DNA from: an uncultured Gemmatimonadota bacterium
GTDB lineage: Bacteria; JAAXHH01
Assembly (NCBI GenBank): GCA_951812955.1
Contig: OX638340.1
Location: forward strand, 2,656,001 to 2,720,000
Direction: 5' to 3'
Length of the DNA: 64,000 bases
Shown here: piece after piece, positions 2,891 to 64,000 of the stretch
Numbering within the stretch: the stretch's first letter is position 1
How the letters are laid out: each line of letters opens with the position of its first letter
Notes under the pieces: generated by a model
What the model saw: only the letters and a program-made list of their open reading frames with translations
The model's database searches: none
What the model was told of the DNA's origin: nothing
Position numbers and translations under genes: made by a program

Positions 2891-3898
2891 CTACGCCGTG
2901 CCCAGGTAGAGGTCCCGCCCCGCCACCAGGCTGGCCATCTTGCGGTCCGCCACGCTGCGGGGAAGCATCCAGAAACCGCAGTCGGGGTGCACCCAACGCA
3001 CGCGCTCAGGGCCGAGTACGTCGACGGAATGCTCGATGCGCCGGGCGACCTCGTCCGGAGATTCGACCCCGTTGTCCTTGATGTCGATCACGCCCACGCC
3101 CAGGGCGATGTCTTCGCGCAGTTCTCTGAACAGCGGCAACTCGTCGTATCCCCGCCGGGCGAACTCCAGCACCAGGTGATTCACGTCGAGGTTGTTCAGG
3201 AAGCCCATAAGATCGTTCCACAGGCCGCTTTGGATGCTCTGGCCGCCGTAATTTCCGAAGCAGAGGTGCAGCCCCTTCTCGCCCTTCACGGCGCCCAGCA
3301 CGTGGTTGACGGGCTCGTGGGCCCAGCTCGCGTCCTTCGGGTGGCCGGTCAGATTGGCCTCGTCCACCTGCAAGATCGGCGCGTCGATCTCGCCGACCTG
3401 CTTGCGCAACACCTCCGCGATGTCCATCGTCATCTTCTGCAGATCGCCGTAGTGCTCGTCCAGCAACGTCTTGGCCAGCATGTAGGGCGAGGTGACGGTG
3501 AACTTGAGCGTCCGGTCCGTGAGGGGCCGGATCATCTTCCACGCGGCCGGAAGATTCAGCGTGCCCTCTTCGATCCAGTCCTTCACGATGCCGCCCGGGG
3601 TACTGCGAAAGGCCATCCCTTCCCGCTTTCTGAATTGGGCAAGGACCTCGCGGGAAACATCCGTCGTGATCCCGGACATGGGCCGGATGAAATACTCGAT
3701 CATCCCATTGGTCTCCGGGTGGCTGACGTCGAAACGGGAAAGCTCGCCGTCGGTGAGCACATCGATCCCGGACAGTTCCTGGGTCTTCAGGATCACCTTG
3801 GCCGCGTCGATCAGATTGGGCGTAGTGGGATAGGCCGCCAGCCAGTCGGGGATGGGATAGCTGCCAACTACGGTCGTCTTGATTGCGGGTACCGCCAT
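2891..3898 (-). CDS. Cobalamin-independent methionine synthase (MetE C-terminal domain-like) family zinc methyltransferase, 335 aa
   Basis: Contains TTVVGSYPIP and DGELSRFD...EYF motifs. Putative Zn ligands are HLCFGNYGG (His/Cys), a Glu, and HPDCGF (Cys), as in the Meth_synt_2 fold. The protein is the size of a single domain. Confidence 0.7.
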   Translation of the reverse strand: MAVPAIKTTVVGSYPIPDWLAAYPTTPNLIDAAKVILKTQELSGIDVLTDGELSRFDVSHPETNGMIEYFIRPMSGITTDVSREVLAQFRKREGMAFRSTPGGIVKDWIEEGTLNLPAAWKMIRPLTDRTLKFTVTSPYMLAKTLLDEHYGDLQKMTMDIAEVLRKQVGEIDAPILQVDEANLTGHPKDASWAHEPVNHVLGAVKGEKGLHLCFGNYGGQSIQSGLWNDLMGFLNNLDVNHLVLEFARRGYDELPLFRELREDIALGVGVIDIKDNGVESPDEVARRIEHSVDVLGPERVRWVHPDCGFWMLPRSVADRKMASLVAGRDLYLGTA

Positions 3899-4203
3899 TG
3901 TGTGGACTCCCTTTACCGATAAGGTCCTTCAGAGCCTTCGTTCCGGTTCCAGTTCTTTTCACATAACATAACGCTGACATCAAGTATACATTATGCATCT
4001 CAAAGTGGGTATCAATACCGAACACTCAGGTCCTGCAACAGCGTGTTATTTCCGATGGCGCGTGCCGTTGCCATCCGTTGCCATTGGTACGCTGTAAGAT
4101 GTCGCTTTAAGTTGCCGTAGTAGGACCGCAATAGGTATGCATACGCGCCTCATGTCCATTCTCCGCATACGGATCCAGAAAGCCCTGCCAGCAAGGTCCT
4201 GAG

Positions 4204-6567
4204 ATGCTCAAAAGCTACCTGACCATAGCGATCCGGAATATGACGAGGCAGAAGGGATATACGGCGATCAACGTGCTCGGACTGGCCGTGGGCATGGTCT
4301 GCGCCATTTTGATCTTCTTTTACGTCGATTTCGAGCTCAGTTATGACCGGTATCATGAGAACGCCGGCCGTATCTACCGGGTCGCGGTCAACAACGACGC
4401 CCGGACGCCTCCAGCCCTGGCGCCCGCACTGCAGCAAGATTTCCCGGAAATCACGCGTTCTGTTCGCCTGCTGCCGACAACCGGTGTGTGGATCATGAAC
4501 CACGCGGAGAACATATATTACGAAAACCGGGTTTACTGGGCGGACAACGCGCTGTTCGACATTCTTGATTTTCCCTTGATCCAGGGAGATTCCCGGTCTG
4601 CGCTCGTTGCGCCTTTATCCGTGGTAATCAGCGAAGATACGGCCCAAAAGTACTTCGGAGAAACGGATCCGATGGGCAAGACGATTATCGCCGATAACGG
4701 TTTCCTGGTACTGACCGTTACGGGCGTCATGGAAAACACGCCGGCGAATACACACCTTCAGGCAGACTTCATCATTTCCCTTTCCACGGCATACCAGGAT
4801 GACCTGAAATACTGGTCGTGGATCAATTTCTACACCTACATCCTGTTGTCCGAGGGCCAGTCACCAGAGGCTACCGAGAGGAAACTGCCCGATTTCGTGA
4901 ACCGGCACATCGGGGAACGCGAGGGCCGTTTCGATCTCTTTCTGCAGCCGGTCACCGACATTCATCTCCATTCCAATCTCGAGCATGAACCCGGCGCGAA
5001 CAGCGATATCACCTACGTTTACATCCTGTCGGCCATCGCCGTCTTCATCCTGGTCGTCGCCTGCATCAATTTCATCAACCTGTCTACCGCACGGTTTGCC
5101 GTCCGCGCTCGAGAAGTGGGACTGCGCAAAGTGCTGGGAGCCCACCGAATCCAGCTGATACGTCAGTTTCTGGGAGAATCGGTCCTGGTAACCGCCGCCG
5201 CGCTGATCATCGCCCTGGTGGTCCTTTTGCTGATCTCCCCGTATATCGACGGCTTTGCAGGGAAACCGGTAACCGCGGCATTCACGGGACATCTCCCCTG
5301 GCTGCTCGCACTGCCGGTGGTTGCGCTGGTCATCGGGTTGTTATCCGGCAGCTATCCCGCTTTCCTTCTTTCTGCCATGCAACCGATACAGGGCGTGAAG
5401 GGAGGCCGCCGGCTCGATTCGGCCGGGGCCATGTCGAGGAAGATTCTGGTTGTTATCCAGTTCTCGATATCCATCGCGTTGATCATCAGCACGGGGATTT
5501 TGTTCAGTCAGATGGAATACCTCCGCAACAAGCGTCTGGGCTTCGATCAGAACCAGGTGATCGTGATACCCACGTTTAACGATGTCCTGGATGACTTTCA
5601 ACCCTGGAAAGAAGCCTTGCTGCAACATGCAGGCGTGATCGGGGTGACCCAAAGCAGGTCGCTGCCAGGACTGGCCGGCAACATCGGCCAGGTTGAGACC
5701 GTCACGATACAGCGTGTCGATGACCCCGGCAATACCAGGCACGACGCGCAGGGACTGAACGTCGGTCTGGATTTCGTGGAGACCCTGGGCATGGAACTGA
5801 TTGCAGGGCGGTCTCATGATGGTGCGTTTGCCAGGGAAGCGGAGAGACTGAACATCGTAATCAACGAAACGGCGCTCCGCGCGCTGGGCTGGGAAACCCC
5901 GGAGGCGGCCATCGACCAGCAGGTACGGTTCGGCAACGACGCGACGCGGACTGTTATCGGAGTGATCGGGGATTTCCATTTTCGATCGTTGCATCTGAAG
6001 ATCGAACCGCTCGTGTTGTTTCTGGGCGGCGGTTCCCACATGGCGGTCAAGCTCCAGCCCGGGGTCGTGGAAGATACGCTGGATATGATTGAAAGCCAGT
6101 GGTCGCGGTTCTTTCCGGATTTCCCCTTCGCTTATACGTTTCTCGACGAGAACATCGATCGGCTGTACAGGTCTGAAGTCGCTACCAGTTACGTGATCGG
6201 CATATTCGCCATGGTGGCTGTTTTCCTTGCCTGTCTCGGACTGTTCGCGTTGGTTTCGTTCACGGTGGAGCTGCGAACCAGGGAGATCGGCATTCGGAAA
6301 TCGCTCGGTGCTTCCGTCCATCGGATGCTGGCCCTGCTTTCCAGCGAGTTCATCGGCCTCGTGCTCCTCGCCAATTTCTTCGCCTGGCCGGCTTCGTGGC
6401 TGGTCATGCAGCGGTGGCTCGAGTCTTTCGCTTACCGCACGGAGGTCGGATTGGGCGTCTTCTTTCTTGCGTGCGGTCTGGCCCTGCTGATCACGCTGAT
6501 CACCATCGCCTTTCATGTGACCCGTACCGCCCTGACCAATCCGGCGGAGGTGTTGCGAAACGAGTGA
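4204..6567 (+). CDS. ABC transporter permease, MacB/FtsX-type, 787 aa; paralog 2 of 4
   Basis: MLKSYLTIAIRNMTRQKGYTAINVLGLAVGMVCAILIFFYV... and a C-terminal ...TALTNPAEVLRNE. Collinear with the other three paralogs over its full length. Confidence 0.85.
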   Translation: MLKSYLTIAIRNMTRQKGYTAINVLGLAVGMVCAILIFFYVDFELSYDRYHENAGRIYRVAVNNDARTPPALAPALQQDFPEITRSVRLLPTTGVWIMNHAENIYYENRVYWADNALFDILDFPLIQGDSRSALVAPLSVVISEDTAQKYFGETDPMGKTIIADNGFLVLTVTGVMENTPANTHLQADFIISLSTAYQDDLKYWSWINFYTYILLSEGQSPEATERKLPDFVNRHIGEREGRFDLFLQPVTDIHLHSNLEHEPGANSDITYVYILSAIAVFILVVACINFINLSTARFAVRAREVGLRKVLGAHRIQLIRQFLGESVLVTAAALIIALVVLLLISPYIDGFAGKPVTAAFTGHLPWLLALPVVALVIGLLSGSYPAFLLSAMQPIQGVKGGRRLDSAGAMSRKILVVIQFSISIALIISTGILFSQMEYLRNKRLGFDQNQVIVIPTFNDVLDDFQPWKEALLQHAGVIGVTQSRSLPGLAGNIGQVETVTIQRVDDPGNTRHDAQGLNVGLDFVETLGMELIAGRSHDGAFAREAERLNIVINETALRALGWETPEAAIDQQVRFGNDATRTVIGVIGDFHFRSLHLKIEPLVLFLGGGSHMAVKLQPGVVEDTLDMIESQWSRFFPDFPFAYTFLDENIDRLYRSEVATSYVIGIFAMVAVFLACLGLFALVSFTVELRTREIGIRKSLGASVHRMLALLSSEFIGLVLLANFFAWPASWLVMQRWLESFAYRTEVGLGVFFLACGLALLITLITIAFHVTRTALTNPAEVLRNE

Positions 6568-6641: not shown

Positions 6642-8066
6642 ATGGTCAACTCCATGAAACACGTCGTCATCGTGGGCGGCGGCTTTGCCGGACTGAACGC
6701 GGCCAAGAAACTCGGCGGCCGGACCGATGTCCGCGTCACCCTGGTGGACCGGCAGAACTACCACCTGTTCCAGCCGCTCCTCTACCAGGTGGCCATGGCC
6801 GGCCTGTCGCCCGCCGATATCGCCACGCCCATACGCAGCGTGCTTGCCCGGTGCGGGAACATTTCGGTGCTGCAGGGCTCGGTCGAGCGGGTCGATCTGC
6901 AGGAACGGACCGTATCGGTGGATTTCGGCCAGCTTCAATATGATTATCTGATGCTCTGTTGCGGGTCGATCCCGAGCTATTTCGGTCACGAGGACTGGGA
7001 GGAGCACGCACCCAGCCTGAAGACGATTCCGCAGGCCACCGAGATTCGCCGGCGCCTGCTGAGTGCCTTCGAAGAAGCGGAACGGACCGACGACACTGAG
7101 CGGCGCCGGCAACTGCTGACCTTCGTCGTCATAGGCGGCGGACCCACCGGAGTGGAGCTAGCGGGCGCCATCGGCGAAATGAGCCGTTTCACCCTCGCGC
7201 GGGACTTCCGCAACATCGACACGAAACTTACCCGCGTCATCCTGATCGAATCGGGCCCGCGCATCCTCTCGATGTTCTCCGAAAAGCTGGCGTCCCGGGC
7301 GACGCGGGACCTGGAAAAGCTCGGCGTGCAGGTCTGGCCGAACACGCTCGCGACGGATATAGACGAGCATGGCGTGCAGGCGGGACCGGAACGCATCGCG
7401 TCCTCGACGGTACTCTGGGCGGCGGGCGTTCGGGGCGTTGAAATCGAGGGACAGCGGCAACAGGGCGTGGAGGCGGAGCGAGTGGGGCGCGCGGAAGCAG
7501 ACTGCGAGGGACACGTGGAGGTAGACTGCGAGGGACACGTGGAGGTAGACCGCGGTGGACGCGTGGAGACGGACCGCGGAGCGCACGTGGAGGTGGACCG
7601 CGGGGGACGCGTAGTCGTCAACGAAGACCTGAGCATCCCAGGACACCCGAACGTGTTCGTCGCGGGCGACCAGGCCTGTTTTACCCACCAGACCGGCAGT
7701 CCCCTTCCGGGCACAGCGCCCGTGGCTATCCAGCAGGGACGCTTCGTGGCACAGACTATTCGCCGCGACCTCGCGTGCAGACCGCGTGAGGCCTTTCGAT
7801 TCGTCGACAAGGGACAGATGGCGACGATCGGTCGCAGCCGTGCCATCGTGGAAATCGGTAAACTCAGATTCTCAGGCTGGTTCGCGTGGGTCACCTGGCT
7901 GGTGGTGCACGTCTACTTCCTCGTGGGTTTCAAGAACCGGCTGCTGGTCGTACTGCACTGGGCCTGGTCCTATCTGACCTTCCGCCGCGGCGCCAGGCTG
8001 ATCGTGGAGCGCGAGTGGCGTTTCGGCGGGCGCAAGGACGAGACCATGCCTGACAGGGAAGAATAA
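6642..8066 (+). CDS. ndh: Type II NADH:quinone oxidoreductase (NDH-2), carrying an unusual in-frame 5 x 8-aa tandem repeat insertion
   Basis: MVNSMKHVVIVGGGFAGLNAAKKLGG...VRVTLVDRQNYHLFQPLLYQVA is a classic NDH-2 Rossmann N-terminus. A second dinucleotide-binding region follows (FVVIGGGPTGVELAG). The ORF-track ATG at 6396 overlaps the previous gene, so the internal ATG at 6642 (or 6654) is preferred. The stop codon overlaps the next gene's start (TAATG). Confidence 0.85.
   Translation: MVNSMKHVVIVGGGFAGLNAAKKLGGRTDVRVTLVDRQNYHLFQPLLYQVAMAGLSPADIATPIRSVLARCGNISVLQGSVERVDLQERTVSVDFGQLQYDYLMLCCGSIPSYFGHEDWEEHAPSLKTIPQATEIRRRLLSAFEEAERTDDTERRRQLLTFVVIGGGPTGVELAGAIGEMSRFTLARDFRNIDTKLTRVILIESGPRILSMFSEKLASRATRDLEKLGVQVWPNTLATDIDEHGVQAGPERIASSTVLWAAGVRGVEIEGQRQQGVEAERVGRAEADCEGHVEVDCEGHVEVDRGGRVETDRGAHVEVDRGGRVVVNEDLSIPGHPNVFVAGDQACFTHQTGSPLPGTAPVAIQQGRFVAQTIRRDLACRPREAFRFVDKGQMATIGRSRAIVEIGKLRFSGWFAWVTWLVVHVYFLVGFKNRLLVVLHWAWSYLTFRRGARLIVEREWRFGGRKDETMPDREE
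7500..7619 (+). repeat. Five tandem 24-bp units inside the ndh coding region (unit consensus gacygcgrgggacrcgtggaggtn)
   Basis: Read directly from the sequence: gactgcgagggacacgtggaggta appears twice, then three related units. Translation is DCEGHVEV DCEGHVEV DRGGRVET DRGAHVEV DRGGRVVV. The last unit merges into the native NDH-2 motif RVVVNEDLSIPGHPNVFVAGD. Confidence 0.85.
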
Positions 8067-10456
8067 TGCCCGGAAGCAAGTTCACCATAAGTCTACGGCA
8101 CATGAGCCGCCAACGGGGATATACCGCGATAAACGTCCTCGGGCTGGCCGTGGGCCTGGTCTGCGCGATCCTGATCTTCCTGTACGTGCGCTGGGAACTG
8201 AGCTACGACCGCTACCACGAAAAGGCCGACCGTATCTACCGGGTAACGCTCAACGACAGCGCCCGATCGCCCCGTGAACTGGGTCCGATACTGCAGGCCG
8301 ACTTCCCCGAAATCCAGCAGTACGCCCGATTGCTTCCCACCATTGGAACCTGGATCATGAAGTACGAAGACCGGGTTTACTATGAAAAGAACGTGTACTG
8401 GGCCAACAACGAGCTGTTCCACGTATTTGACTTTCCCCTCGTCAGAGGAGATCCCGATCATGCCCTCGTAGCACCGTACACGGCGGTGATCAGCGAGGAT
8501 ACGGCCAGGAAATATTTCGGCGAGGACGATCCCATGGGGAAGACCATAATCGCCGACAATGGCTACATGCTGCTGACCGTCACAGGCGTCATGGAGAATG
8601 TTCCGGAAAACTCCCATTTTCATCCCGAATTCCTGATATCCTTGCCTACCGGATATGACAAATTCCAATGGAGCGAGACCCCGAGAATCTGGTATAGCGA
8701 CCTTTTTTACACCTACGTCGTCATGCCTGAAGGCCATCCGCCGTTGGAGACCCAGGAGAAACTGCCCGGTTTCGTGGAGAAACACGTAGAAGCGAGTTTC
8801 CTGGAGGACATCGGCCGTTTCGAACTGACGCTGCAACCCCTCACCGATATCCACCTTCATTCCCATCTTGAAAACGAGCACGGCACGAACACCGATATCT
8901 CCTACGTGTATATCCAGTCCGCCATCGGGCTGTTCATCCTGATCATCGCTTCGGTGAATTATGTAAACCTGTCCACCGCGCAGTTCGCGCACCGGGCCCG
9001 CGAGATCGGCATGCGCAAGGTTCTGGGGGCGTCCCGGGGACAGTTGATTCGGCAATACCTGGGCGAATCGGTCCTGATGACCATCGCGGCCCTGTTGATC
9101 GCCCTGGCGGCGGTCTACTTTCTTGCGCCGTATTTCGACGCGCTGCTGGGCCTGCCGGTAACCGCGGTCCATGCGCTGCACCCCCTGTGGTGGTTCGCCA
9201 TGCCGGCCATCGCGATCCTCATCGGGCTCCTTTCGGGTGGTTACCCGGCCCTTTTGTTCTCCTCCATGCGGGTCATTCCGGGGCTCAAGGCAGCGCAGCC
9301 CTACCAGCTTGGCGGCGCGTGGTCCAGGAAGATCCTGGTCATCGCCCAGTTCGTCATTTCCATCGCGCTGATCATCGGAACGGGCATCCTGTTCAGCCAG
9401 TTGAACTTCATTCAGAACAAGAAACTGGGATTCGAAAAGGACCTGGTGATCGTGATTCCCACGGTTCAGCAGGTGGCGGTCAACTACCAGCCGTGGAAAG
9501 ATGCCCTGTTGCAGTACACCGGAGTGGACGGCGTGAGCCAGGCCATCACCCTGCCCGGCCTGTTCGGTACCATAGGCCGGATGTCGACCGGTACGATCCA
9601 GCGCGTCGAGGATCCGGACCACGTCCGGCATACCGTCCAGGGATTTCAGGCCGCCGTGGATTTCGTGGAGACGATGGGCATGGAACTGCTCGCGGGCAGG
9701 TCTCATCGCGGGTCATTCAGAAACGACACCGAAACTGAAAACATCGTGATCAACGAAGCGGCTATGCGCGTCCTGGGCTGGGAAACGCCCGAAGAGGCCA
9801 TCGGCCGGCAGGTCCGCTTCGCCAGTGGAAACATCCACACGGTAGTCGGCGTGGTCCGGGACTTTCACTTCCGTACGCTTCACCTTGCCATCGAGCCGCT
9901 CGTATTCTTTCACGGCACAGGCCTGCACCTGGTGGTCCGGATCCGACCCGAAGACATCAGTCGCACGCTGGAATTCATCGAAGGGACATGGTCCGAGTTC
10001 TTCCCCGATTTCCCCTTTGCCTATACGTTTCTCGACGAAGACATCGACCGCCTGTATCGGACAGAGGCTCGTATCGGCTACTTCTTCGGCGCATTCGCCC
10101 TGGTTGCTGTTTTCCTCACCTGCCTGGGCCTCGTCGCGCTGGTATCGTTCACGGTCGAACGGCGGACCCGGGAGATCGGCATACGCAAGGCACTGGGCGC
10201 TTCCGTGCGGCGGCTACTCGCCATGCTGTCCGCCGAGTTCGTAGGACTTGCGCTCGTTGCCAATGTCTTCGCCTGGCCTGCGGCGTGGCTGATCATGACC
10301 CGCTGGCTCGAGGATTACGCCTACCGTGTCGAGTTCGGATGGGACATATTCTTCCTTTCGGGCGGCGCAGCGGTGCTGATCACCCTGGTCACCATCGGGT
10401 ACCACGTAATCCGGACTGCGTTGGCCAACCCCGCGGACGTGTTGCGGAGTGAGTGA
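8066..10456 (+). CDS. ABC transporter permease, MacB/FtsX-type, 796 aa; paralog 3 of 4
   Basis: MPGSKFTISLRHMSRQRGYTAINVLGLAVGLVCAILIFLYV... and ...TALANPADVLRSE at the C-terminus. Same architecture as paralogs 1 and 2. Confidence 0.85.
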   Translation: MPGSKFTISLRHMSRQRGYTAINVLGLAVGLVCAILIFLYVRWELSYDRYHEKADRIYRVTLNDSARSPRELGPILQADFPEIQQYARLLPTIGTWIMKYEDRVYYEKNVYWANNELFHVFDFPLVRGDPDHALVAPYTAVISEDTARKYFGEDDPMGKTIIADNGYMLLTVTGVMENVPENSHFHPEFLISLPTGYDKFQWSETPRIWYSDLFYTYVVMPEGHPPLETQEKLPGFVEKHVEASFLEDIGRFELTLQPLTDIHLHSHLENEHGTNTDISYVYIQSAIGLFILIIASVNYVNLSTAQFAHRAREIGMRKVLGASRGQLIRQYLGESVLMTIAALLIALAAVYFLAPYFDALLGLPVTAVHALHPLWWFAMPAIAILIGLLSGGYPALLFSSMRVIPGLKAAQPYQLGGAWSRKILVIAQFVISIALIIGTGILFSQLNFIQNKKLGFEKDLVIVIPTVQQVAVNYQPWKDALLQYTGVDGVSQAITLPGLFGTIGRMSTGTIQRVEDPDHVRHTVQGFQAAVDFVETMGMELLAGRSHRGSFRNDTETENIVINEAAMRVLGWETPEEAIGRQVRFASGNIHTVVGVVRDFHFRTLHLAIEPLVFFHGTGLHLVVRIRPEDISRTLEFIEGTWSEFFPDFPFAYTFLDEDIDRLYRTEARIGYFFGAFALVAVFLTCLGLVALVSFTVERRTREIGIRKALGASVRRLLAMLSAEFVGLALVANVFAWPAAWLIMTRWLEDYAYRVEFGWDIFFLSGGAAVLITLVTIGYHVIRTALANPADVLRSE

Positions 10457-11246: not shown

Positions 11247-11341
11247 ATTTGAAATCGTCAGATGCCGGCGCGGCACCTGTTTAAGTGTCCGGTGATTAAT
11301 TCGAAGTGCGATTCCAACAACATGGGAAAGGACAGTAAATC

Positions 11342-11764
11342 ATGTCTCCAAATAACGCATCATTAGATTCGGAATTGGTTCAACGATTCGTTTCCGACGC
11401 CCATAGAGATTTCGATAGTGTCAAGGATATGGTCGAAAAGGAACCCAAGTTGGTCAACGCCTGCTGGGACTGGGGTGGCGGTGACTGGGAAACCGGGCTC
11501 GGTGCCGCCGCGCACACGGGAAGCAGGGATATTGCGGAGTATCTGCTGCAAAAAGGGGCGCGCATAGATCTGTACGCTGCGGCTATGTTGGGCAAGCTGA
11601 GCGTCGTGCAGGCTATTCTTGAAGACAATCCATCTGAAAAAGACAAGCCGGGTCCCCACGGGATTAAGCTCATGACCCACGCGAAAAAGGGAGGTAAGGA
11701 AGCCGCGGAGGTCGTTAAGTTGCTGCAGTCCCTCAACAAGAAACCGAAGTCTAAGGAGAAGTAA
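11342..11764 (+). CDS. Ankyrin-repeat protein, 140 aa, in a lower-GC patch
   Basis: GLGAAAHTGSRDIAEYLLQKGARIDLYAAAMLGKLSVVQAIL fits the ankyrin consensus (G-TPLH-AA--GH---V--LL--GA). Visibly lower GC than the flanks. Confidence 0.65.
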   Translation: MSPNNASLDSELVQRFVSDAHRDFDSVKDMVEKEPKLVNACWDWGGGDWETGLGAAAHTGSRDIAEYLLQKGARIDLYAAAMLGKLSVVQAILEDNPSEKDKPGPHGIKLMTHAKKGGKEAAEVVKLLQSLNKKPKSKEK

Positions 11765-24882: not shown

Positions 24883-25015
24883 TCCTAGCCTGCAGCCGTA
24901 TTATCCTCAGGTATTAAGTCCTTGTTCCGGATTCAATACCCATACTGAATGGTTTGATTAGGCAGTAGCGAAGAAAACGAGCCCGCCCGTTCCTCACCCG
25001 CTCTTCACCCGCTCT

Positions 25016-26065
25016 TCATCCACTCCTCACCCACTCCAGATCGAACCGGACCAACTTGATCGTCTCGTAGGGATGATCTTCTCCCCGTTCATAGAGGCAG
25101 GCGACGGTACCGTCTGGAAGCACGGCGAGGGATGAATAGGCGGACGGCCCGGGATGCAGCACCTTTTCACGTGGCCAGGATCCGCCGGCTTCATCGGAAA
25201 GTCTCACGGTCAGGTTACACCGCTCGTCCCGGCTGGCCGGATTCGAGAACAGCAGGCGGTCGCCCGCGCCGGGATACCGGACGAGGGCCGCCTGGCAGAT
25301 CGGTTCGATCAGCGTTTCGTCGTGGCGCTGGTTACGCCACGTCATCCCGCCGTCTCCGCTGACGGCGAACTGCCTGGTGCGCAAGGCCCGGTCGTAATTT
25401 CGCATGTTGAGCAGGACGTCGCCGTTTTCCAGCTCGGTGACGCAGCATTCGTTGACCTGGTCTTGCAAAGTCGTGCCGCCCATCCGCCAGGTTTCCCCAT
25501 GGTCTTCGCTGTATATGACATGAGAATAGTAGCGTTTGGTGCTTGCCTCTATGTGGTCGCAGGGTATCAGCATCCGGCCCGACGATAGCTGAATTCCGTT
25601 GCCCGGTCCGGTGGCGTACCACGTCCAGTCCGCGCGCTTCGCGGTGGAGGTGATATCCCGCGGTTCGCGCCACGTGCGGCCGTCGTCTTCGCTGGCCGTG
25701 ACCCAGACGGTCCGTGAGCCCTGGCTCGTCCCCTCGATGATCTCGGATTCGCGGTCGATCCCCATGTTGTGGGTCATGAGCAGCCATACTTTCCCGGTCT
25801 CGCCGTCTACCACCGGACAGGGATTGCCGCAGGTATTCCCTGCGTCCGCCCAGACCAGCTCCTGGTCCGACCAGGTGCGCCCGCCGTCTTCGCTCCGCTT
25901 CACCAGCATGTCGATATCGCCGGTGTCGCTTCGGCTGCTCCTCCGGCCTTCGCAGAAGGCGAGGACCGTACCCCGGGTTGTCGCGATGATCGCTGGAATG
26001 CGGTAGGTATCGTAACCTTCCGTGCCGCTGGTCCAGATATCGGATTGTTTACAGGAGCCGCTCAT
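25016..26065 (-). CDS. Exo-alpha-sialidase (GH33, BNR/Asp-box repeat)
   Basis: YRIPAI (sialidase RIP motif) plus four Asp-boxes: SEDGGRTW, SEDDGRTW, SEDHGETW and SGDGGMTW. Confidence 0.85.
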   Translation of the reverse strand: MSGSCKQSDIWTSGTEGYDTYRIPAIIATTRGTVLAFCEGRRSSRSDTGDIDMLVKRSEDGGRTWSDQELVWADAGNTCGNPCPVVDGETGKVWLLMTHNMGIDRESEIIEGTSQGSRTVWVTASEDDGRTWREPRDITSTAKRADWTWYATGPGNGIQLSSGRMLIPCDHIEASTKRYYSHVIYSEDHGETWRMGGTTLQDQVNECCVTELENGDVLLNMRNYDRALRTRQFAVSGDGGMTWRNQRHDETLIEPICQAALVRYPGAGDRLLFSNPASRDERCNLTVRLSDEAGGSWPREKVLHPGPSAYSSLAVLPDGTVACLYERGEDHPYETIKLVRFDLEWVRSG

Positions 26066-40891: not shown

Positions 40892-42883
40892 TCAGACCCG
40901 TTTGATCCCCTCGCACAGATCGATCATGGCGGAGAGGATGGATTCCGCCAGGCAGTCGATGGCTTCCCGTGTTCCCGCGATGTCTACCGAGGCCGCCGAA
41001 ACGTAGCACTTGACCGTGGGTTCGGTGCCCGACGGTCGCACGATGACCCGCGTATGTCCGGACTCAGAAAAGGTGAAGACCAGGATATCCGCGCGATCGC
41101 CGTCAACGGGCGTAGTCGTTCCCGTTCGCAGATCCTGCGCCTGGCCGCTCTGCCGGTCGATCACGCGGCAAACGGCGCGTCCGCCTATCCGCTCGGGAGG
41201 CGCTTCACGCAGCGCGGCCATCATGCCTTCGATCCTCCGTGTGCCCTCCGCGCCGGGCAGCGCGACCGACCGCTGGACTTCCCTGAAATATCCGTACGTT
41301 CGGTAGATATCGTCCAGTTCATCGCGCAGGGTGCGGTTGTCCTTCTTCGCCAGGGCGGCGAACTCGGCGAGCAGGATGCCGGTGGCAGCCTCCTTGTCCC
41401 GTATCCGGGCGTCGGCCAGATAGCCGTGGCTTTCCTCGGTACCGAACACGAAGGACATATCCGGCGGCAAGCCTTCGATCGCCGCGCCAACGTGTTTGAA
41501 ACCGATGGGCAGGTCGTCGATGACCTCCAGTCTGAAGGACCGGGCGATGATCGAGGCAAGGTCCGAGGTGACCAGCGTCTTGCAGAACAGACCCCTAGGG
41601 GGCAGCGTACCCGCCGCTTGCTTCCGGCTGAGTATGTAGTGGCAGAGGAGGACGCCGATCTGGTGACCGTTTAAACTCAGTTCTTCCGGCGGAGCTTCCC
41701 ATCCCCTGTCCGGCAGCGGCAGCGCGCACCCGATCCGGTCGGCGTCGGGGTCGCTCGCGAGCACGAGGTCCGCGCCGACTTCCGCGGCTTTTCTGAAGCC
41801 CAATTGAAAGGCCGCCGGTTTTTCGGGGTTTGCGATCCCATGGTCCAGCGTGGAGAACGCACCGTCCGGGACGACCTGCTCATCCACGTAGTGCACGTCC
41901 TCATAACCCAGCTTATCCAGTGCCGCGGCCACCGAGGTCATGCCCACGCCGTGCAGTGGGGTATACACCACACGCACGTCTCGGCCATCGGCCAGCGACA
42001 GGTCCGACAGGACGCCGATATACCCCTCGTCCAGGTCCCTGCCGATGATCCGGATCAGGCCGTTTCGGAGGCCTTCTTCGTAGTCGATCCGCCTGATCTC
42101 ACCGGCCTGCCTCATCTCTCTCGTGATGTCCCCGTCCCGGGGCGCCACCACCTGCCCCCCGTCGGGTCCGTAAACCTTGAATCCGTTGTCTTCGGGTGGA
42201 TTGTGGCTCGCGCTGATCATCACACCGGCCGCCGCCCGGAGTTCGCGGACGGCGAAGGAAAGCGCGGGGGTGGAGCGAAAACCGTCGAAGATCAGGACGT
42301 CTATGCCGTTGGCGGCCAGCACGCCGGCCGTCTCTTTCGCAAACAACTCCGAATTGCGCCGGGTGTCCCATGCCACGACGACGCCGCGCGCCCCAGCGGG
42401 ACCGCGGTGATTTTCACTAACTTGCCCATCACCGCCTTGCCCATCGCCCTCGAGCCCTGCACCGACACGTTCCCCGTCGCCATCGTCGCCCTGCCCATCG
42501 CCGCCTCGCCCATCACCTTCGCGCTCTGCACCGACGCGATCCCTGTCGCGCTCTGCACCCTCGCGATCCCCATCGCCTCTCCCCATCATCCCGGTGACAT
42601 ACCTGGCCAGTCCCTGTGCCGCCAGGCCCACGGTGTGGGTGTTGAGCCGGTTCGGCCCCGGTCCCATCCGACCTCGGATGCCGCCCGTTCCAAAGGAGAG
42701 GACCGAACCGAATGCGTCCTCCAGTTCGTCGGTGCCGCCGGCATCGATGAGGGCATGGATCTCATCCCGGTACGCCGCGAGGCCGGGCTCCGTAGACCAT
42801 AGTACCAGGGCATCCGAGGCCGCACGGGACAGGATGCCGTTTTCGGTCCAGGCGTTGATCCTGCTGACGCGTTGTTGATTCAT
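40892..42883 (-). CDS. Phosphoglucomutase/phosphomannomutase (alpha-D-phosphohexomutase family), with a ~55-aa Gly/Asp/Arg/Glu-rich low-complexity insertion
   Basis: Phosphoserine loop SASHNPPEDNGFKV. Metal loop ASDPDADR. Sugar-binding GTEESHG. Preferred start is the ATG at 42883 (MNQQRV...); the track start at 43198 is an over-extension. Confidence 0.85.
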   Translation of the reverse strand: MNQQRVSRINAWTENGILSRAASDALVLWSTEPGLAAYRDEIHALIDAGGTDELEDAFGSVLSFGTGGIRGRMGPGPNRLNTHTVGLAAQGLARYVTGMMGRGDGDREGAERDRDRVGAEREGDGRGGDGQGDDGDGERVGAGLEGDGQGGDGQVSENHRGPAGARGVVVAWDTRRNSELFAKETAGVLAANGIDVLIFDGFRSTPALSFAVRELRAAAGVMISASHNPPEDNGFKVYGPDGGQVVAPRDGDITREMRQAGEIRRIDYEEGLRNGLIRIIGRDLDEGYIGVLSDLSLADGRDVRVVYTPLHGVGMTSVAAALDKLGYEDVHYVDEQVVPDGAFSTLDHGIANPEKPAAFQLGFRKAAEVGADLVLASDPDADRIGCALPLPDRGWEAPPEELSLNGHQIGVLLCHYILSRKQAAGTLPPRGLFCKTLVTSDLASIIARSFRLEVIDDLPIGFKHVGAAIEGLPPDMSFVFGTEESHGYLADARIRDKEAATGILLAEFAALAKKDNRTLRDELDDIYRTYGYFREVQRSVALPGAEGTRRIEGMMAALREAPPERIGGRAVCRVIDRQSGQAQDLRTGTTTPVDGDRADILVFTFSESGHTRVIVRPSGTEPTVKCYVSAASVDIAGTREAIDCLAESILSAMIDLCEGIKRV
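42410..42600. repeat. Imperfect in-frame repeats inside the phosphohexomutase gene (encode RGDGDREGAERDRDRVGAEREGDGRGGDGQGDDGDGERVGAGLEGDGQGGDGQ)
   Basis: The plus-strand sequence shows repeated ctgcccatcgcc / ctgcaccgac / cgcgctctgcacc blocks. The translated insertion sits between the conserved N-terminal helix and the VVVAWDTRRNS segment. Confidence 0.6.
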
Positions 42884-42951
42884 CTCATGAGAGGAGGATT
42901 GGGAAACCGCGGTCGAGCGCCACGTTTTCCATGTGGAGTTCCGTGTCCCCT

Positions 42952-44907
42952 TTAGAAGAACTGGAGTTCGTGTATTGACCCTCGAAAATACCAGAAGTCC
43001 ACCAGGATCGCAACGGCGGCGCCGAGGACATAGCCTACCATGATGCCGATCATCAGCGGCTGGACAGCCTGGTAGAGGCGTACACCGCCTACCCTGATCA
43101 GTATGGTTTTCAACAGCCAGGCCAGAAAGACGGGAAAGAATGCGTTGCGCGCGGGACCGCCGGCGGCCACCACGAAACCGATAGGCGAAATGGGCCACCA
43201 GCTGAAGTAATAGCGGGCAACGCTCATACCCGTGACCATGGCCATGCCCACGACCAGGAAGAACACCTCCGCACCCGAAATGGTGGTACTGTTCTGCATC
43301 CAGGTTATGATCAAGTTATAGAAACCGGGGTCTCCGGCGATATTGTTGTAGTAATTCGCCGCACCGCCCAGCCGGTATCCGGAATAGGCCGAAAAACCGA
43401 TGGCCGTAATCGAGCTGACGACGAAGGTGACCGATGCCCAGAAGAACAGGACCCGTCCGGAGACGCCGAGTATGGACTGCATCCGCGCGACGTGGGAGGG
43501 GATGATCATCGTAAAGGTCTTCCAGTTGCGTGCAAAAGCGCTTCCCAAGCCCAGGGCCGTCAGGTTCTGCGGCGACAGTGAGGCGGAGCCCAGCATGCCC
43601 ACAGTAAACTGGTGGGCGTTGATGGGCAGGTCCAGGAAGACCAGCCCCGATTCCGCCATCACGCGGCACAGTGCGAAGTAGAAGAGGAAAAGCAGGACGA
43701 GAAAGACGGCGATCACCGGGAAGGACATGCCGATCACGTGCAGCCACCAGGAGATATAGGCCATGCCGCAGACGCCCGTGACCAGGGCCGCCCGGTAGGA
43801 AATGAACTCGTCTTCGTCGCGCAGGTTCGTTTCGTGTCCCCGTACGTGGCGCCACACCATCGCCAGGTGCCGCCGCGCGATCCAGAAACCCCAGAGCGCG
43901 AAGGCGATCATGCCCCCGATGAACTGCACGGCGACCAGTCCGCCCGGTATGGCCGTACCCGAGGCTGCGACAACGCCGACCCGGGCCAGGATGCCCTGCT
44001 GTAGCGTATTGATGATCTGGAACAGCCACACGCTGAAAAGGATATCCACGTTGATGAAGTAGGAGAAGGCAAAGGTGAGGACGTTCATTCGGATTGGATG
44101 CGCCGGAAAAGCATGTCCGAAATTAACGCTGAGCACGGTGCTCGCGTCGACGGGAAAGGACGACCACTGGGTCCAGTATGATGCGGTGTTCCAGAGCATG
44201 ATGGAGAAGGTGACCACCGCGCCGGTGATGAACATGCGGTTTCGCATGATCGTCGGCAGGACGGCGTCCGGCTCATCCTTCGTTTCCGTCATGACGACCG
44301 GCGCCTGGACGAGGGGATAGGAAAGCCGCTCGTGCTCGACCCACTGCCTGCGCATCAGGATGACGAAGCAGATGCCCACGGCCAGGAGGCCGCCAAAGAA
44401 AGACAGCCACCAGAACGACGGAATGATCCAGGCCGCCCAGGGGATCGGCATGCTTTCTGGTAGGCCCCAGTAATAGTCCCGGTTCGCGTTCTGTTCGTTC
44501 GTGACGATGAGCCAGTCGGGCAGATAGGCGAAGAACATCTCGCGCCACTGGTTCTCGGGCGACGCGAAGTATTCCGCCGTGGCCATCACGTTCACGACGT
44601 AGTTGGACATGCCCCAGGTCGGCACCATGAAACCGACCCAGCCAAGTACGAAAACGAAGAGTACTTCTTTGTCCCGCAATCCCAATGACGGACGGATCGC
44701 CTTGACCAGCAGGTTGGGACCCAGGACACCCAGCAGGAAGGGAATCAGCAGGGCGAGATCTATGTGGGCGAAGGTAAGGTGCACATACCCCAGGTGGTAG
44801 TTGCTCGACACGGAGAAAAGATTGACGACGACGGCCAGGGCCAGGCCCGCCGCCACCGCCCGGGGCGTTACCACCTTCGAGGAGGTTCTTTGTTCCAGTT
44901 CGCTCAT
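42952..44907 (-). CDS. Large polytopic membrane protein of unknown function (651 aa); paralog 2 of 3
   Basis: Same length and conserved blocks as 44998-46953 (about 85% nt identity over long stretches) and 26165-28120. Confidence 0.65.
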   Translation of the reverse strand: MSELEQRTSSKVVTPRAVAAGLALAVVVNLFSVSSNYHLGYVHLTFAHIDLALLIPFLLGVLGPNLLVKAIRPSLGLRDKEVLFVFVLGWVGFMVPTWGMSNYVVNVMATAEYFASPENQWREMFFAYLPDWLIVTNEQNANRDYYWGLPESMPIPWAAWIIPSFWWLSFFGGLLAVGICFVILMRRQWVEHERLSYPLVQAPVVMTETKDEPDAVLPTIMRNRMFITGAVVTFSIMLWNTASYWTQWSSFPVDASTVLSVNFGHAFPAHPIRMNVLTFAFSYFINVDILFSVWLFQIINTLQQGILARVGVVAASGTAIPGGLVAVQFIGGMIAFALWGFWIARRHLAMVWRHVRGHETNLRDEDEFISYRAALVTGVCGMAYISWWLHVIGMSFPVIAVFLVLLFLFYFALCRVMAESGLVFLDLPINAHQFTVGMLGSASLSPQNLTALGLGSAFARNWKTFTMIIPSHVARMQSILGVSGRVLFFWASVTFVVSSITAIGFSAYSGYRLGGAANYYNNIAGDPGFYNLIITWMQNSTTISGAEVFFLVVGMAMVTGMSVARYYFSWWPISPIGFVVAAGGPARNAFFPVFLAWLLKTILIRVGGVRLYQAVQPLMIGIMVGYVLGAAVAILVDFWYFRGSIHELQFF

Positions 44908-53309: not shown

Positions 53310-53396
53310 GCCGGGGTGGTGGAATTGGTAGACACAGGAGACTTAAAATCTCCCGGACCTCAATAGTCCGTGCCGGTTCGAGTCCGGCCCTCGGCA
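53310..53396 (+). tRNA. tRNA-Leu (anticodon UAA), type II with a long variable arm
   Basis: GCCGGGGTGGTGGAATTGGTAGACACAGGAGACTTAAAATCTCC...GGTTCGAGTCCGGCCCTCGGCA. The anticodon loop cuUAAaa reads UAA. Acceptor stem has one G-U pair. No encoded CCA. Confidence 0.85.
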
Positions 53397-53435: not shown

Positions 53436-53509
53436 GGGCGCTTAGCTCAGATGGTTAGAGTGCCACGTTGACATCGTGGAGGTCAGTGGTTCGATCCCAC
53501 TAGCGCCCA
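53436..53509 (+). tRNA. tRNA-Val (anticodon GAC)
   Basis: GGGCGCTTAGCTCAGATGGTTAGAGTGCCACGTTGACATCGTGGAGGTCAGTGGTTCGATCCCACTAGCGCCCA. The anticodon loop ttGACat reads GAC. T-loop GGTTCGATCC. Confidence 0.85.
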
Positions 53510-60586: not shown

Positions 60587-62515
60587 ATGTCCGAAGCATC
60601 CGCCCCATCCACCGAAACCATGGAATTCAAGAGCGAGTTGAGGCAGATCCTCCACCTGATTACCCACTCGCTATATTCTCACAAGGAGATCTTCCTCCGC
60701 GAGTTGATAAGCAACGCCAGCGACGCGATCAACAAGATACGGTTCAATTCCATCAACAACAGCGATCTGCTGGACGGCGACACCGAGTGGAAAATCAGGT
60801 TGATCGTCGACAAGGACAAGAAAACCCTTACGGTTTCCGATAACGGCGCGGGGATGTCCCGCGATACCATCATCGATCAACTGGGTACGATCGCAAAGTC
60901 CGGCACGAAGGCGTTCATCGAGACCCTGCAGCAGGCCGACGAGGCCAGCCGGCCCGAACTGATCGGCCAGTTTGGCGTGGGGTTCTACTCCGCCTTCATG
61001 GTGGCCGACCGGGTCACGGTCGTTTCCCGTCTGGCCGGGGATCCGGTGGACCAGGGCGTACGCTGGGTCTCTGCGGGAGAAGGCGATTTCACGGTCAAGA
61101 TCGTGGATAAGGAGTCCCATGGCACCGACGTCACGCTCCATCTCAAGGAGGACGAGCAGGAGTTCCTGGAGGAGTGGCGGCTCCGGCTGGTCGTCAAGGA
61201 GTTCTCCGATTTCATCGAGTACCCGGTCGTCATGGACGTGGAACGGAACGAACCGGTCGAAGGGGAGGACGAAAAGACCGAGACGGTGATCCGGGAAGAA
61301 ACGCTCAACTCCATGAAGGCGCTCTGGCTGCGGTCGAAGGACGAAATCGAAGAGGACGAATACAACGCCTTCTACCGCCAGATCTCCCACGATTACGGCG
61401 ATCCGGCGAAGGTGATCCATTATACGGCCGAAGGGCTGACGGAATTCAAAGTGCTGCTCTTCATACCGGCCAAGCGTCCCTTCGACATGATGTTCGGCGA
61501 TCCCAAGGTAGGGCCCAGACTGTACGTACAGCGGGTACAGATCATGGAAAACTGCGAGGAACTGCTTCCGCCCTACCTGCGCTTAATCAAGGGCGTGGTG
61601 GACTGCGCCGACCTGCCCCTCAACGTCTCTCGCGAGATCCTGCAGCAGAATCCCATACTGGACCGCATCCGCAAGAACATCGTAAAGCGGATCTTCACCA
61701 CGCTGGAGGAGATGAAGAAGGATGAGTTCGACAAGTACGTGGATTTCTTCAAAGAGCTGGGCTTGATCCTCAAGGAAGGGATGGCGCAGGACTTCGAAAA
61801 CCGGGATACCCTCACCTCGCTTGCAGTTTACGAGTCCATGAATACCGAGGCCGGGAAGTTCATTCCCATGGACGAATACGTCGACCAGATGCCGCCCGAC
61901 CAGGAAGAGATCTACTACCTGATCGGCGAGCATCGCGGCATGCTCGAAAGGACGCCGTACCTGGAGGTTTTCCGGGACCGCGGCTGGAACGTCCTCTTCA
62001 TGACGGATCCCATCGACGAATTCGTCATGTCGTCGGTGACCGAGTACCGCGAGAAGAAGTACAAGGCGGCCAACAAGGGCGACATAGCAGCCGACGAATC
62101 CGCCAAGGCCCGCGCGGAGGACGACGAAAAGACATTCAAGGCCCTGATCGAAACGCTGAAGGGCAAAATATCGGATGTGCAGGATATCCGGTTGTCGACC
62201 CGGCTCACGGACAGCGCATCCTGCCTGGTGGCCGACGAAGGCGCCATGAGCGCCCACATGGAACGGCTCATGCAGCGCATGGGCGAAGGCGAAGGCCAGG
62301 ATTCGAAGCGCATCCTGGAACTCAATGCCGGCCATCCTGTCGTCCAGGGACTGCAGAAGCTGCACGACAGCGACAACGGCGACGCGCGCGTCGAATCCAT
62401 CGGCCGCCTGCTTTACGAACAGGCCGTCGTGGCTGAGGGGTCCAAGCTTGATGATCCGGTGGGTTTTGCGGGCCGCATCAACGAGTTGCTTGTAAAGGAG
62501 CTGATCCGGGTTTAG
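60587..62515 (+). CDS. htpG: Molecular chaperone HtpG (Hsp90)
   Basis: EFKSELRQILHLITHSLYSHKEIFLRELISNASDAINKIRF is the Hsp90 N-terminal ATPase signature. 642 aa. Collinear with bacterial HtpG. Confidence 0.9.
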   Translation: MSEASAPSTETMEFKSELRQILHLITHSLYSHKEIFLRELISNASDAINKIRFNSINNSDLLDGDTEWKIRLIVDKDKKTLTVSDNGAGMSRDTIIDQLGTIAKSGTKAFIETLQQADEASRPELIGQFGVGFYSAFMVADRVTVVSRLAGDPVDQGVRWVSAGEGDFTVKIVDKESHGTDVTLHLKEDEQEFLEEWRLRLVVKEFSDFIEYPVVMDVERNEPVEGEDEKTETVIREETLNSMKALWLRSKDEIEEDEYNAFYRQISHDYGDPAKVIHYTAEGLTEFKVLLFIPAKRPFDMMFGDPKVGPRLYVQRVQIMENCEELLPPYLRLIKGVVDCADLPLNVSREILQQNPILDRIRKNIVKRIFTTLEEMKKDEFDKYVDFFKELGLILKEGMAQDFENRDTLTSLAVYESMNTEAGKFIPMDEYVDQMPPDQEEIYYLIGEHRGMLERTPYLEVFRDRGWNVLFMTDPIDEFVMSSVTEYREKKYKAANKGDIAADESAKARAEDDEKTFKALIETLKGKISDVQDIRLSTRLTDSASCLVADEGAMSAHMERLMQRMGEGEGQDSKRILELNAGHPVVQGLQKLHDSDNGDARVESIGRLLYEQAVVAEGSKLDDPVGFAGRINELLVKELIRV

Positions 62516-62730
62516 AGGTCGGGAGACCGGGATAGCCGGCGTTTCCCATGGCACGCACGGCCGGTACGATCGGCAGGCATGGCACGCACGTCCCGCAGGC
62601 ACGGCAGGCACGCGTGGCAGGCAGGCACGACACCCACGGCAACGGCACGCACGGCCGGTCGGCACGTGGTCACGGACCGCCGTATTTCAAGCTGTCATCA
62701 AACCATTGGCATCTTCAGGTAGCTGTCATT

Positions 62731-64000
62731 ATGCGCGTACCCGTAATACTCGTATCGATACTTGCACTGGTCTCCTGCGGCGAGAGTGAACGCGCCGCCG
62801 AACAACCCGAGGCAGGGGGACGCGTAAACTCGATCGGCGTGGTCCTCCCGGATGACGCGGTGGACGCCTCCCGCCAGGTGCTGCGCTCCATGAGTCCCGA
62901 GCCCAAGAGCCTGGACCCCAGTATCGAACCCTACGATACCGAACAGACGATCCTGCCCTTTGAAGCGCTGCTGTTCAAGGACGAACACTGGAACCCGATC
63001 CCGGGCGCCGCGCACAGCTGGGGTTCGGAAGACGGCATTGTCTGGACCTTCAATCTCAGGTCCGGGATGCGCTGGAGCGACGGATCGCCTCTGACCGCGC
63101 ACGACTTCGTGTATTCCTATCGCCGGATGCTCAATCCCGAATCCACCAACATCTACGCCTTTTTCTACTACGACATCAAAAACGCCGAAGCCATCGTCAA
63201 AGGGGAGAACAAGGATATCGAGTCCCTGGGCATAAAGGCGGTGGATGACACGACCCTGGTCATCGAAACGGAAAAACGCGCACCTTACCTGCCCCATATC
63301 GTTTCCTTCGGCGACGCCATGCCGGTGCCGAAGCGGCTGGTGGACAAATACGGACGCAAGTGGACCGAGCCGGAGCACATCATCACCAATTCCGGCTTCA
63401 AAGTATCTGAATGGGTTCACGGCAGCCACATGACCCTCGTTCCCAATCCCTATTACAACGGCCCCCACAAGCCATTCCTGGAGAAGGTTATCCACCCCTT
63501 CCGAAACGCGGCCGCGGCGACCATACTTCCCTACGAGGGCGACGAAGTCGACATGGAGAACGTGGATATCAACGATCTGAATCGAATTGAAAGTGATCCT
63601 CAACTGAAGAAGGATCTCGTGCGATTCCACGGATTGAATACCTGGTATGTCTTTTTCAGGACGCAGTTGCCGCCGTTCAACGACATTCGCGTGCGGGAAG
63701 CCTTCACGCGGGTGATGGACCGTGAAAACATCTGCAACATCATCCTGCGGGGCGGAGCAGTTCCGGCCTATTCCATGATCCCGCCAGGATTCAAGGAATT
63801 CGAAGGCGACACGCACGCCGCGGTGCAGGGTTTCGATCCCGAACGGGCGCGGCAGCTGATGCGCGAAGCCGGATATCCCGGGGGACAGGGATTCCCCCGG
63901 CAGGAGCTGTGGCTGCGGGCGCCGACCCCCTCCGTCCGCCTCATCGGCGTGGCGATCCAGAGCATGCTGAAGGAGCATCTCGGCATCGAGGTGGACATCC
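62731..64000 (+). CDS. ABC transporter substrate-binding lipoprotein, family 5 (peptide/nickel/oligosaccharide type), 3'-truncated by the window end
   Basis: Lipobox ILALVSCGE. The frame is open to base 64000, with family-5 SBP blocks (...SMSPEPKSLDPSIEPYDTEQTIL...TFNLRSGMRWSDGSPLTAHDFVYSY...). It is not in the ORF track because no stop occurs within the window. The listed 62698-63978 minus ORF is its antisense shadow. Confidence 0.8.
   Translation, partial: MRVPVILVSILALVSCGESERAAEQPEAGGRVNSIGVVLPDDAVDASRQVLRSMSPEPKSLDPSIEPYDTEQTILPFEALLFKDEHWNPIPGAAHSWGSEDGIVWTFNLRSGMRWSDGSPLTAHDFVYSYRRMLNPESTNIYAFFYYDIKNAEAIVKGENKDIESLGIKAVDDTTLVIETEKRAPYLPHIVSFGDAMPVPKRLVDKYGRKWTEPEHIITNSGFKVSEWVHGSHMTLVPNPYYNGPHKPFLEKVIHPFRNAAAATILPYEGDEVDMENVDINDLNRIESDPQLKKDLVRFHGLNTWYVFFRTQLPPFNDIRVREAFTRVMDRENICNIILRGGAVPAYSMIPPGFKEFEGDTHAAVQGFDPERARQLMREAGYPGGQGFPRQELWLRAPTPSVRLIGVAIQSMLKEHLGIEVDI

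Follow-up and report, generated by a model that had tools for sequence, protein, structure and literature searches.

How does a core respiratory enzyme come to carry a run of tandem 24-nt units within its coding sequence, and what, if anything, does the run do there? The question is raised by a 64-kb stretch of DNA (hereafter the window) in which the gene for a type II NADH:quinone oxidoreductase (NDH-2) contains such an array. It could be an assembly error, an on/off switch, an ordered or regulatory module, or a tolerated loop whose length drifts among strains.

The host gene and its repeat array

The relevant features are listed below by window position.

6654..8066, +: ndh, type II NADH:quinone oxidoreductase (NDH-2), 470 aa, assigned by Pfam and structure match
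6675..6692, +: first GxGxxG, GGGFAG (G8-G10-G13), FAD-binding Rossmann motif, invariant in 116 homologs
7134..7151, +: second GxGxxG, GGGPTG (G161-G163-G166; residues 161-166), NADH-binding Rossmann motif, invariant in 116 homologs
7428..7475, +: ancestral loop, VRGVEIEG (from 7428) and QRQQGVEA (from 7452), residues 259-274, present in unexpanded relatives
7476..7499, +: inserted unit 1, ERVGRAEA, a diverged copy with 14-15 of 24 nt in common with the other units
7500-7523 and 7524-7547, +: inserted units 2 and 3, DCEGHVEV twice, both GACTGCGAGGGACACGTGGAGGTA, identical at 24/24 nt
7548-7571 and 7572-7595, +: inserted units 4 and 5, DRGGRVET and DRGAHVEV
7596..7619, +: native unit DRGGRVVV, residues 315-322, the conserved turn and strand that open the FAD-domain beta-meander
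7656..7670, +: FVAGD, the GD motif (second FAD-binding motif), residues 335-339, with F335, A337, G338 and D339 invariant (116 homologs)

The product of ndh has the two Rossmann domains, the GD motif, the C-terminal membrane-anchoring domain and the fold of an NDH-2. Pfam reports Pyr_redox_2 (1.1e-43, 150 bits) and Pyr_redox (54 bits), both above their cutoffs, together with NDH2_C at 32.2 bits against a cutoff of 27.7, and the best solved relative is the mycobacterial NDH2 9mqy (E 1.4e-100). When the AlphaFold2 model was searched with Foldseek, 9mqy_A came first (E 1e-40, TM 0.77/0.80), followed by the NDH-2 enzymes of S. aureus, C. thermarum and yeast (Ndi1); the model places C-terminal helices at residues 409-425 and 429-443. 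Because the core is under strong purifying selection (omega about 0.1), the gene appears to be functional, and all of its catalytic motifs are intact. Minus-strand ORFs that run over the array (6986-7894 and 7158-7688) were set aside as side effects of high G+C, lying opposite a gene for which the homology evidence is overwhelming.

The gene is bracketed by three paralogous MacB_PCD+FtsX permease genes (495-2882, 4204-6567 and 8066-10456, all on the + strand), which are 68-72% identical in nucleotide sequence to one another, and the placement of ndh between MacB/FtsX permease genes is kept in relatives. The TAA that ends ndh (8064-8066) shares its final base with the ATG (at 8066) of the permease gene that follows, forming TAATG at 8064-8068, an overlap which suggests that ndh and the third permease might be translationally coupled. 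A separate feature of the protein is its quinone-site motif at residues 355-362 (7716-7739), APVAIQQG as against AQGAIQGG in the mycobacterial enzyme. P356, standing in place of the first Gln, is invariant in 116/116 homologs and is therefore a family-level feature unrelated to the repeat.

Direct reading of the window sequence bears out the five in-frame, head-to-tail 24-nt units that the original prediction had placed at 7500-7619, as do the repeat-finding and shuffling results below. The 24-nt register also extends upstream of 7500 and takes in a sixth, diverged unit (7476-7499) that the prediction had left uncounted. In codon register, the region from 7428 to 7619 is laid out as eight units of 8 aa after the WAAG strand, beginning with the ancestral loop that comes after this last strand of the NADH domain. 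Over 7499-7612, Tandem Repeats Finder detects a 24-nt period with 4.8 copies and 78% matches, at a score of 128. No other periodicity in the window is as strong: at lag 24, the self-match over 7476-7619 amounts to 0.75, a value that none of 300 codon shuffles of ndh reached (shuffle maximum 0.52). With a unit length that is a multiple of 3 (24-nt period, 4.8-6 copies), the array has the form of an in-frame VNTR. Measured against unexpanded relatives, it amounts to five extra units, or 40 aa (7476-7595), the native unit, whose strand all NDH-2 enzymes have, not being counted. FVAGD lies a short way downstream, in agreement with the predicted position just before the second FAD-binding motif.

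The idea that the units are tandem copies of native codons is likewise supported, the pattern being DRGGRVxV. In the native unit, D315, R316, G318, R319 and V322 are invariant or nearly so in homologs, and the DRxGRVxV motif is found across phyla; we presume that the native DRGGRVVV unit was the seed of the repeat. At the upstream end, the counterpart of the ERVGRAEA unit in the relative L081 is ERVGRVKT. The DCEGHVEV doublet looks like the most recent duplication, as had been proposed from the identity of its two units. In P0125, a partial relative, the units follow the window's order except that DCEGHVEV occurs once, so that the doublet looks like a one-unit change.

Other kinds of element were considered for the array and rejected. 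A dispersed element, or a DGR-like template/variable pair, is excluded by the fact that all matches to the unit with <=3 mismatches fall inside the array; there is no second copy elsewhere in the 64-kb window, where 0 would be expected by chance. RTX/beta-roll nonapeptide repeats (9-residue GGxGxDxUx) do not fit the array's 8-residue (24-nt) period, and Pfam yields no match to a repeat family; nor does it find an EF-hand, RTX or other domain in the insert. The potential of the single-stranded array to form a hairpin or cruciform is no better than that of shuffles (fold z = 0.16), and it offers no structural promoter of slippage.

The window also holds repeats at other sites. The 3' end of a BNR_2 sialidase-like gene (25016-26065, - strand) falls within an 11-nt repeat at 24986-25037 (CCCGCTCCTCA, 4.7 copies); because 11 nt is not divisible by three, a gain or loss of units could change the C-terminus of that gene product. 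An irregular GGCACGCAC-type repeat with periods of 9, 13, 22 and 31 occupies 62547-62666, between the convergent htpG (60587-62515, +) and an unannotated ORF (62698-63978, -). Finally, a phosphoglucomutase-family ORF (40892-43198, -) has a 27-nt repeat (2.9 copies, 42504-42580) in the N-terminal extension that precedes its first PGM_PMM domain, and the true start codon of this ORF may be downstream of the repeat. An Rfam scan of the window matched only two adjacent tRNA genes (53310-53396 and 53436-53509) and nothing near the array.

Connector length in the family and among close relatives

Connector length was measured as the segment from WAAGV to FVAGD, which is 85 aa in the window. A protein search returned many relatives at 77-94% identity, with lengths of 421 to 498 aa. 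The segment is 41-43 aa long in Planctomycetota, Myxococcota, Acidobacteriota, Chlorobi and other groups, and a single clade of MAGs, which bear the label Gemmatimonadetes or Latescibacterota, has segments of 43-96 aa. An exhaustive search over 1.84 billion cluster representatives, in which 131 of the best 150 could be anchored, gave 34-47 aa in these 131 diverse NDH-2 representatives (mode 43) against the 85 aa of the window; one apparent 70-aa segment among them was an anchoring artefact. The figure of 85 aa is far outside this family norm, and the expansion is specific to the clade. The mycobacterial NDH-2 (9mqy/9mqz) resembles the window's enzyme in sequence (about 41% identity), fold (TM 0.77-0.80), Rossmann domains, GD motif and C-terminal membrane-anchor helices, but differs in its connector of about 10 residues. 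HMMER alignment with 9mqy leaves residues 262-309 of the query without counterpart, the solved enzyme having ~10 residues there (chain 279-290). The expected gain of residues relative to NDH-2 orthologs is confirmed, with 40 extra.

Many bin names in the clade (SB06xx, IRC1, APA, Plut) point, we assume, to sponge and coral metagenomes. MAGs of the Gemmatimonadetes and Latescibacterota phyla from Ircinia ramosa as well as Aplysina aerophoba were examined in PMC8163846, which confirms that point and nothing further. The host bacterium is probably sponge-associated, or a member of a sponge- or coral-associated lineage. A literature search on repeats in NDH-2 or on the NDH-2 of sponge symbionts returned nothing relevant.

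Counting the window, 29 close relatives were compared, and in every one the loop consists of an integral number of 8-aa units, ranging from 3 to 8.

3 units (no insert): P0011, P0012, P0014
4 units: P0004, P0010
5 units: P0003, P0008, P0009
6 units: 8 sequences
7 units: P0123, P0125, P0126
8 units: the window, P0130, P0001, P0121, P0122, P0124, P0128, P0129, P0135

P0130, on a 3.81-Mb contig, is the protein of the window itself, with its start annotated at a GTG codon further upstream. Eight units is both the commonest and the largest state seen, and nearly the whole clade keeps some expansion, P0043, P0049 and P0027 being among the members without any insert.

Sequences that are adjacent in a neighbour-joining tree of the core can have unequal segments: P0009 (61 aa) is next to P0135 (85), P0004 (53 aa) is beside the window (85), and P0126 (77) is beside P0128 (85). 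The window and L081 are 96-100% identical in DNA over 13 kb, and their ndh cores differ by dS 0.023 and dN 0.004, with 250-nt blocks of 100% identity, while their arrays have 8 and 4 units, respectively. Copy number thus differs among closely related genomes, and the VNTR-like behaviour that had been suggested for the array is supported by the range of 3 to 8 units. This polymorphism, like the repeat itself, is a direct observation.

The identity between the window and L081, its closest relative, is a mosaic, with blocks of 100% at 6000-6249, 6750-7249 and 11250-11499, and only 81-85% at 3750-4249, an intergenic region and the 5' end of the second permease gene. The pattern suggests that recombination may have occurred between strains.

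The same site in ndh has seen recent events in other lineages. DRGAHVET occurs twice in L020, a 72-nt block is duplicated in L082, and a 33-nt unit is present twice at 100% identity in L063. The loops of L005, L016, L021 and L023 carry 9-nt runs that encode Gly-Gln/Pro/Lys-His (GQH/GPH), with up to ~9 copies. The run of L021, for example, is GPHGQHGPHGQHGKHGPHGPHGPHG, and such runs yield His-rich, collagen-like Gly-X-Y strings.

The original prediction had treated a lineage feature and instability as mutually exclusive outcomes. Both parts hold: relatives share the insertion site, and copy number and unit order vary where the core is near-identical. What fails is the either/or choice between them.

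From these observations, we consider it probable that the array is an in-frame 24-bp minisatellite (VNTR) in an intact NDH-2, where it forms a tolerated loop whose copy number drifts quickly. The process would have started with a tandem duplication of the codons for the native turn and strand, DRGGRVxV, in the connector that joins the NADH domain's last strand, WAAG, to the beta-meander running up to the GD motif. Whole units would later have been gained and lost by slipped-strand mispairing or by unequal recombination between units. The enzyme presumably tolerates an acidic, probably disordered surface loop of 40 residues at this connector, and it is because of this tolerance that copy number could drift rapidly from strain to strain, with strong purifying selection still acting on the catalytic core. 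We infer both the mutational mechanism (slippage or unequal recombination) and the near-neutrality of the changes. An effect of the array on enzyme function that is small, or absent altogether, is most likely.

Structure and constraint of the loop, and the alternatives

Across residues 271-310, the AlphaFold2 model has block pLDDT values of 53, 37, 35 and 44, compared with 85-95 in the flanks, including the native unit onward. It has no strands in residues 275-312, and its sole helix there (268-283) is of low confidence. The original prediction had raised the possibility of a surface loop, and the insertion indeed appears in the model as a low-confidence loop (pLDDT 35-53) that lacks strands. 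In the model of the unexpanded relative P0012, the connector is also a loop, and with a pLDDT of 62 for residues 261-270 it is the weakest part of the region. Of the 40 inserted residues, 12 are acidic, 5 are Arg, 3 are His and 2 are Cys, for a net charge of -7. On the basis of these models, the inserted loop is probably flexible, disordered and exposed on the surface.

Constraint differs sharply between the two parts of the protein. Omega is 0.08-0.19 in the core (all pairs) versus 0.44-0.82 in the inserted units (equal-length arrays), where dN is ~10x higher, although the array values are rough because the positional homology of units between strains is uncertain. Even so, unit omega is below 1, and unit positions D1, V6 and E7 are well kept. 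This could mean that the units are under some constraint rather than being purely neutral, but homogenisation between units or a recent common origin would explain the same facts equally well. Similarly, the prevalence of the 8-unit state and the near-universal expansion in the clade could hint at selection on loop length.

These hints bear on the alternative that survives best, although we consider it unlikely: that the acidic, His/Cys-rich loop is a selected, tunable module for metal binding, pH or redox sensing or partner contact, whose copy number adjusts NDH-2 in the symbiont niche. In addition to the unit omega, the negative charge and the retention of some expansion by nearly the whole clade, this reading can draw on the occurrence of different repeat types at one site in the clade (24-nt DRGGRVET, 9-nt GQH/GPH and 33-nt), with His frequent in the 24-nt and 9-nt types alike. 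As read from the sequence, the DCEGHVEV doublet also makes a Cys-x2-His-x4-Cys-x2-His ligand set, and regulatory insertions (EF-hand, CxxC) are known in other NDH-2 groups (PMC5299459). However, those insertions are at another site, after the GD motif, and no Pfam domain is recognized in the present one, for which the model has very low confidence. Copy number is unequal between near-identical strains, and some clade members do without the insert. The Cys and His residues are not conserved between the units of relatives, and a change from R to H takes only one CGC-to-CAC transition. Nor are the expansions fully independent, given that GQH lineages retain one extra DRGDRVMT unit. More doubtful still is the proposition that the clade's connector expansion is adaptive, serving NDH-2 as a partner-binding element, or as a regulatory one that responds to metal, redox state or pH, with a length tuned by rapid unit turnover.

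It is very unlikely that the turn and strand units fold as an ordered extension of the beta-meander, making a small extra beta-sheet domain instead of a disordered loop. Each unit does copy the native DRGG + RVxV element of the model's beta-meander region, and its R-V-E-T/V pattern alternates in a strand-like manner in the sequence. Against this, AlphaFold2 places only a weak helix and no strand in the insert, dN is high in the units, and every integer array length from 3 to 8 is tolerated.

We give almost no credence to a contingency locus in which repeat changes switch ndh on and off by phase variation, a role that the original prediction had entertained. Copy number is highly variable among strains, but the 24-nt unit lies in mid-gene and never shifts the frame. 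All 29 of the arrays are whole multiples of 8 aa, and ndh carries no frameshift in any relative. Because every change keeps the reading frame, the array cannot be a phase-variation switch. Furthermore, NDH-2 is a peripheral membrane enzyme of the cytoplasmic face and not a surface antigen.

An equally negligible prospect, also raised at the outset, is that an assembler expanded a single unit or a shorter array. The window's exact array is found in one public record only (P0130), presumably from the same assembly as the window, and exact-protein look-ups of the window allele in its 470-aa and 500-aa annotated forms found none on record. However, relatives from several assemblies carry 4-8 units, including arrays of 4, 6, 6 and 8 units on contigs of 2.47, 2.25, 3.85 and 3.91 Mb, and P0125 supports the window's unit order. 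The 8-unit array of P0001 is nucleotide-identical in two separate records, a Logan assembly (run ERR3887490) and the ENA contig ctg30206l. Contig names of the forms ptg...l, ctg...l and ctg..._75x_c are in what we take to be the style of long-read assemblers, and the whole array (144-192 nt, with an identical stretch of just 48 nt) should be smaller than a single read. The suspicion of an artefact is therefore set aside.

Relation to known systems and implications

A tolerated, rapidly drifting minisatellite has clear parallels elsewhere. In-frame intragenic tandem repeats are known in bacteria, for example, at in-frame MIRU-VNTR loci of mycobacteria and in repeat-number variants of surface proteins. 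The ndh array is like these in having head-to-tail units that are multiples of 3 and a copy number that varies between close strains, in having adjacent identical units that mark recent events, and in its presumed origin by slippage or unequal recombination. It is unlike them in that its host is a core respiratory flavoenzyme instead of a surface or secreted protein, and in that its unit originates in a structural element native to the host protein, with variation known between strains. The contingency loci of host-adapted bacteria have short units (1-7 nt) that shift the frame or promoter spacing. The ndh array shares with these simple-sequence loci a hypermutable tract inside a gene, but its 24-nt unit is always in frame.

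Within the NDH-2 family, EF-hand inserts (in the Ca2+-dependent plant and fungal enzymes) and CxxC inserts are described between the GD motif and helix alpha7 (PMC5299459). The protein studied here is similar in combining an NDH-2 core with a lineage-specific extra segment near the GD motif, but its segment is upstream of that motif, repetitive, variable in length and without a Pfam match. Membership in the insertion-bearing EF-hand/CxxC group was rejected, because the insert (275-314) precedes the GD residues (338-339) and has neither an EF-hand match nor a CxxC.

The array is thus a lineage-specific, fast-varying loop expansion that is new among NDH-2 enzymes. It is also a clean intragenic VNTR, mechanistically ordinary, and does not constitute a new type of system. 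It marks a natural insertion-tolerant site in NDH-2 that is useful for engineering or tagging, and it could serve as a strain-typing marker for an uncultured, apparently sponge- or coral-associated lineage. A caution also follows for annotation and clustering pipelines, since alleles with cores about 99% identical are up to 40 residues apart in length.

If loop length proves functional, the array would represent a new kind of regulatory insertion in NDH-2, and if the expansion is truly adaptive, a core respiratory enzyme would have an evolvability device built into it. On the reading that we favour, of a tolerated minisatellite, the locus demonstrates that a fast-evolving repeat can be accommodated in a conserved respiratory flavoenzyme at a defined structural junction, one that is near-constant in length (34-47 aa) across the rest of the NDH-2 family, while the constraints on the enzyme's core are kept.
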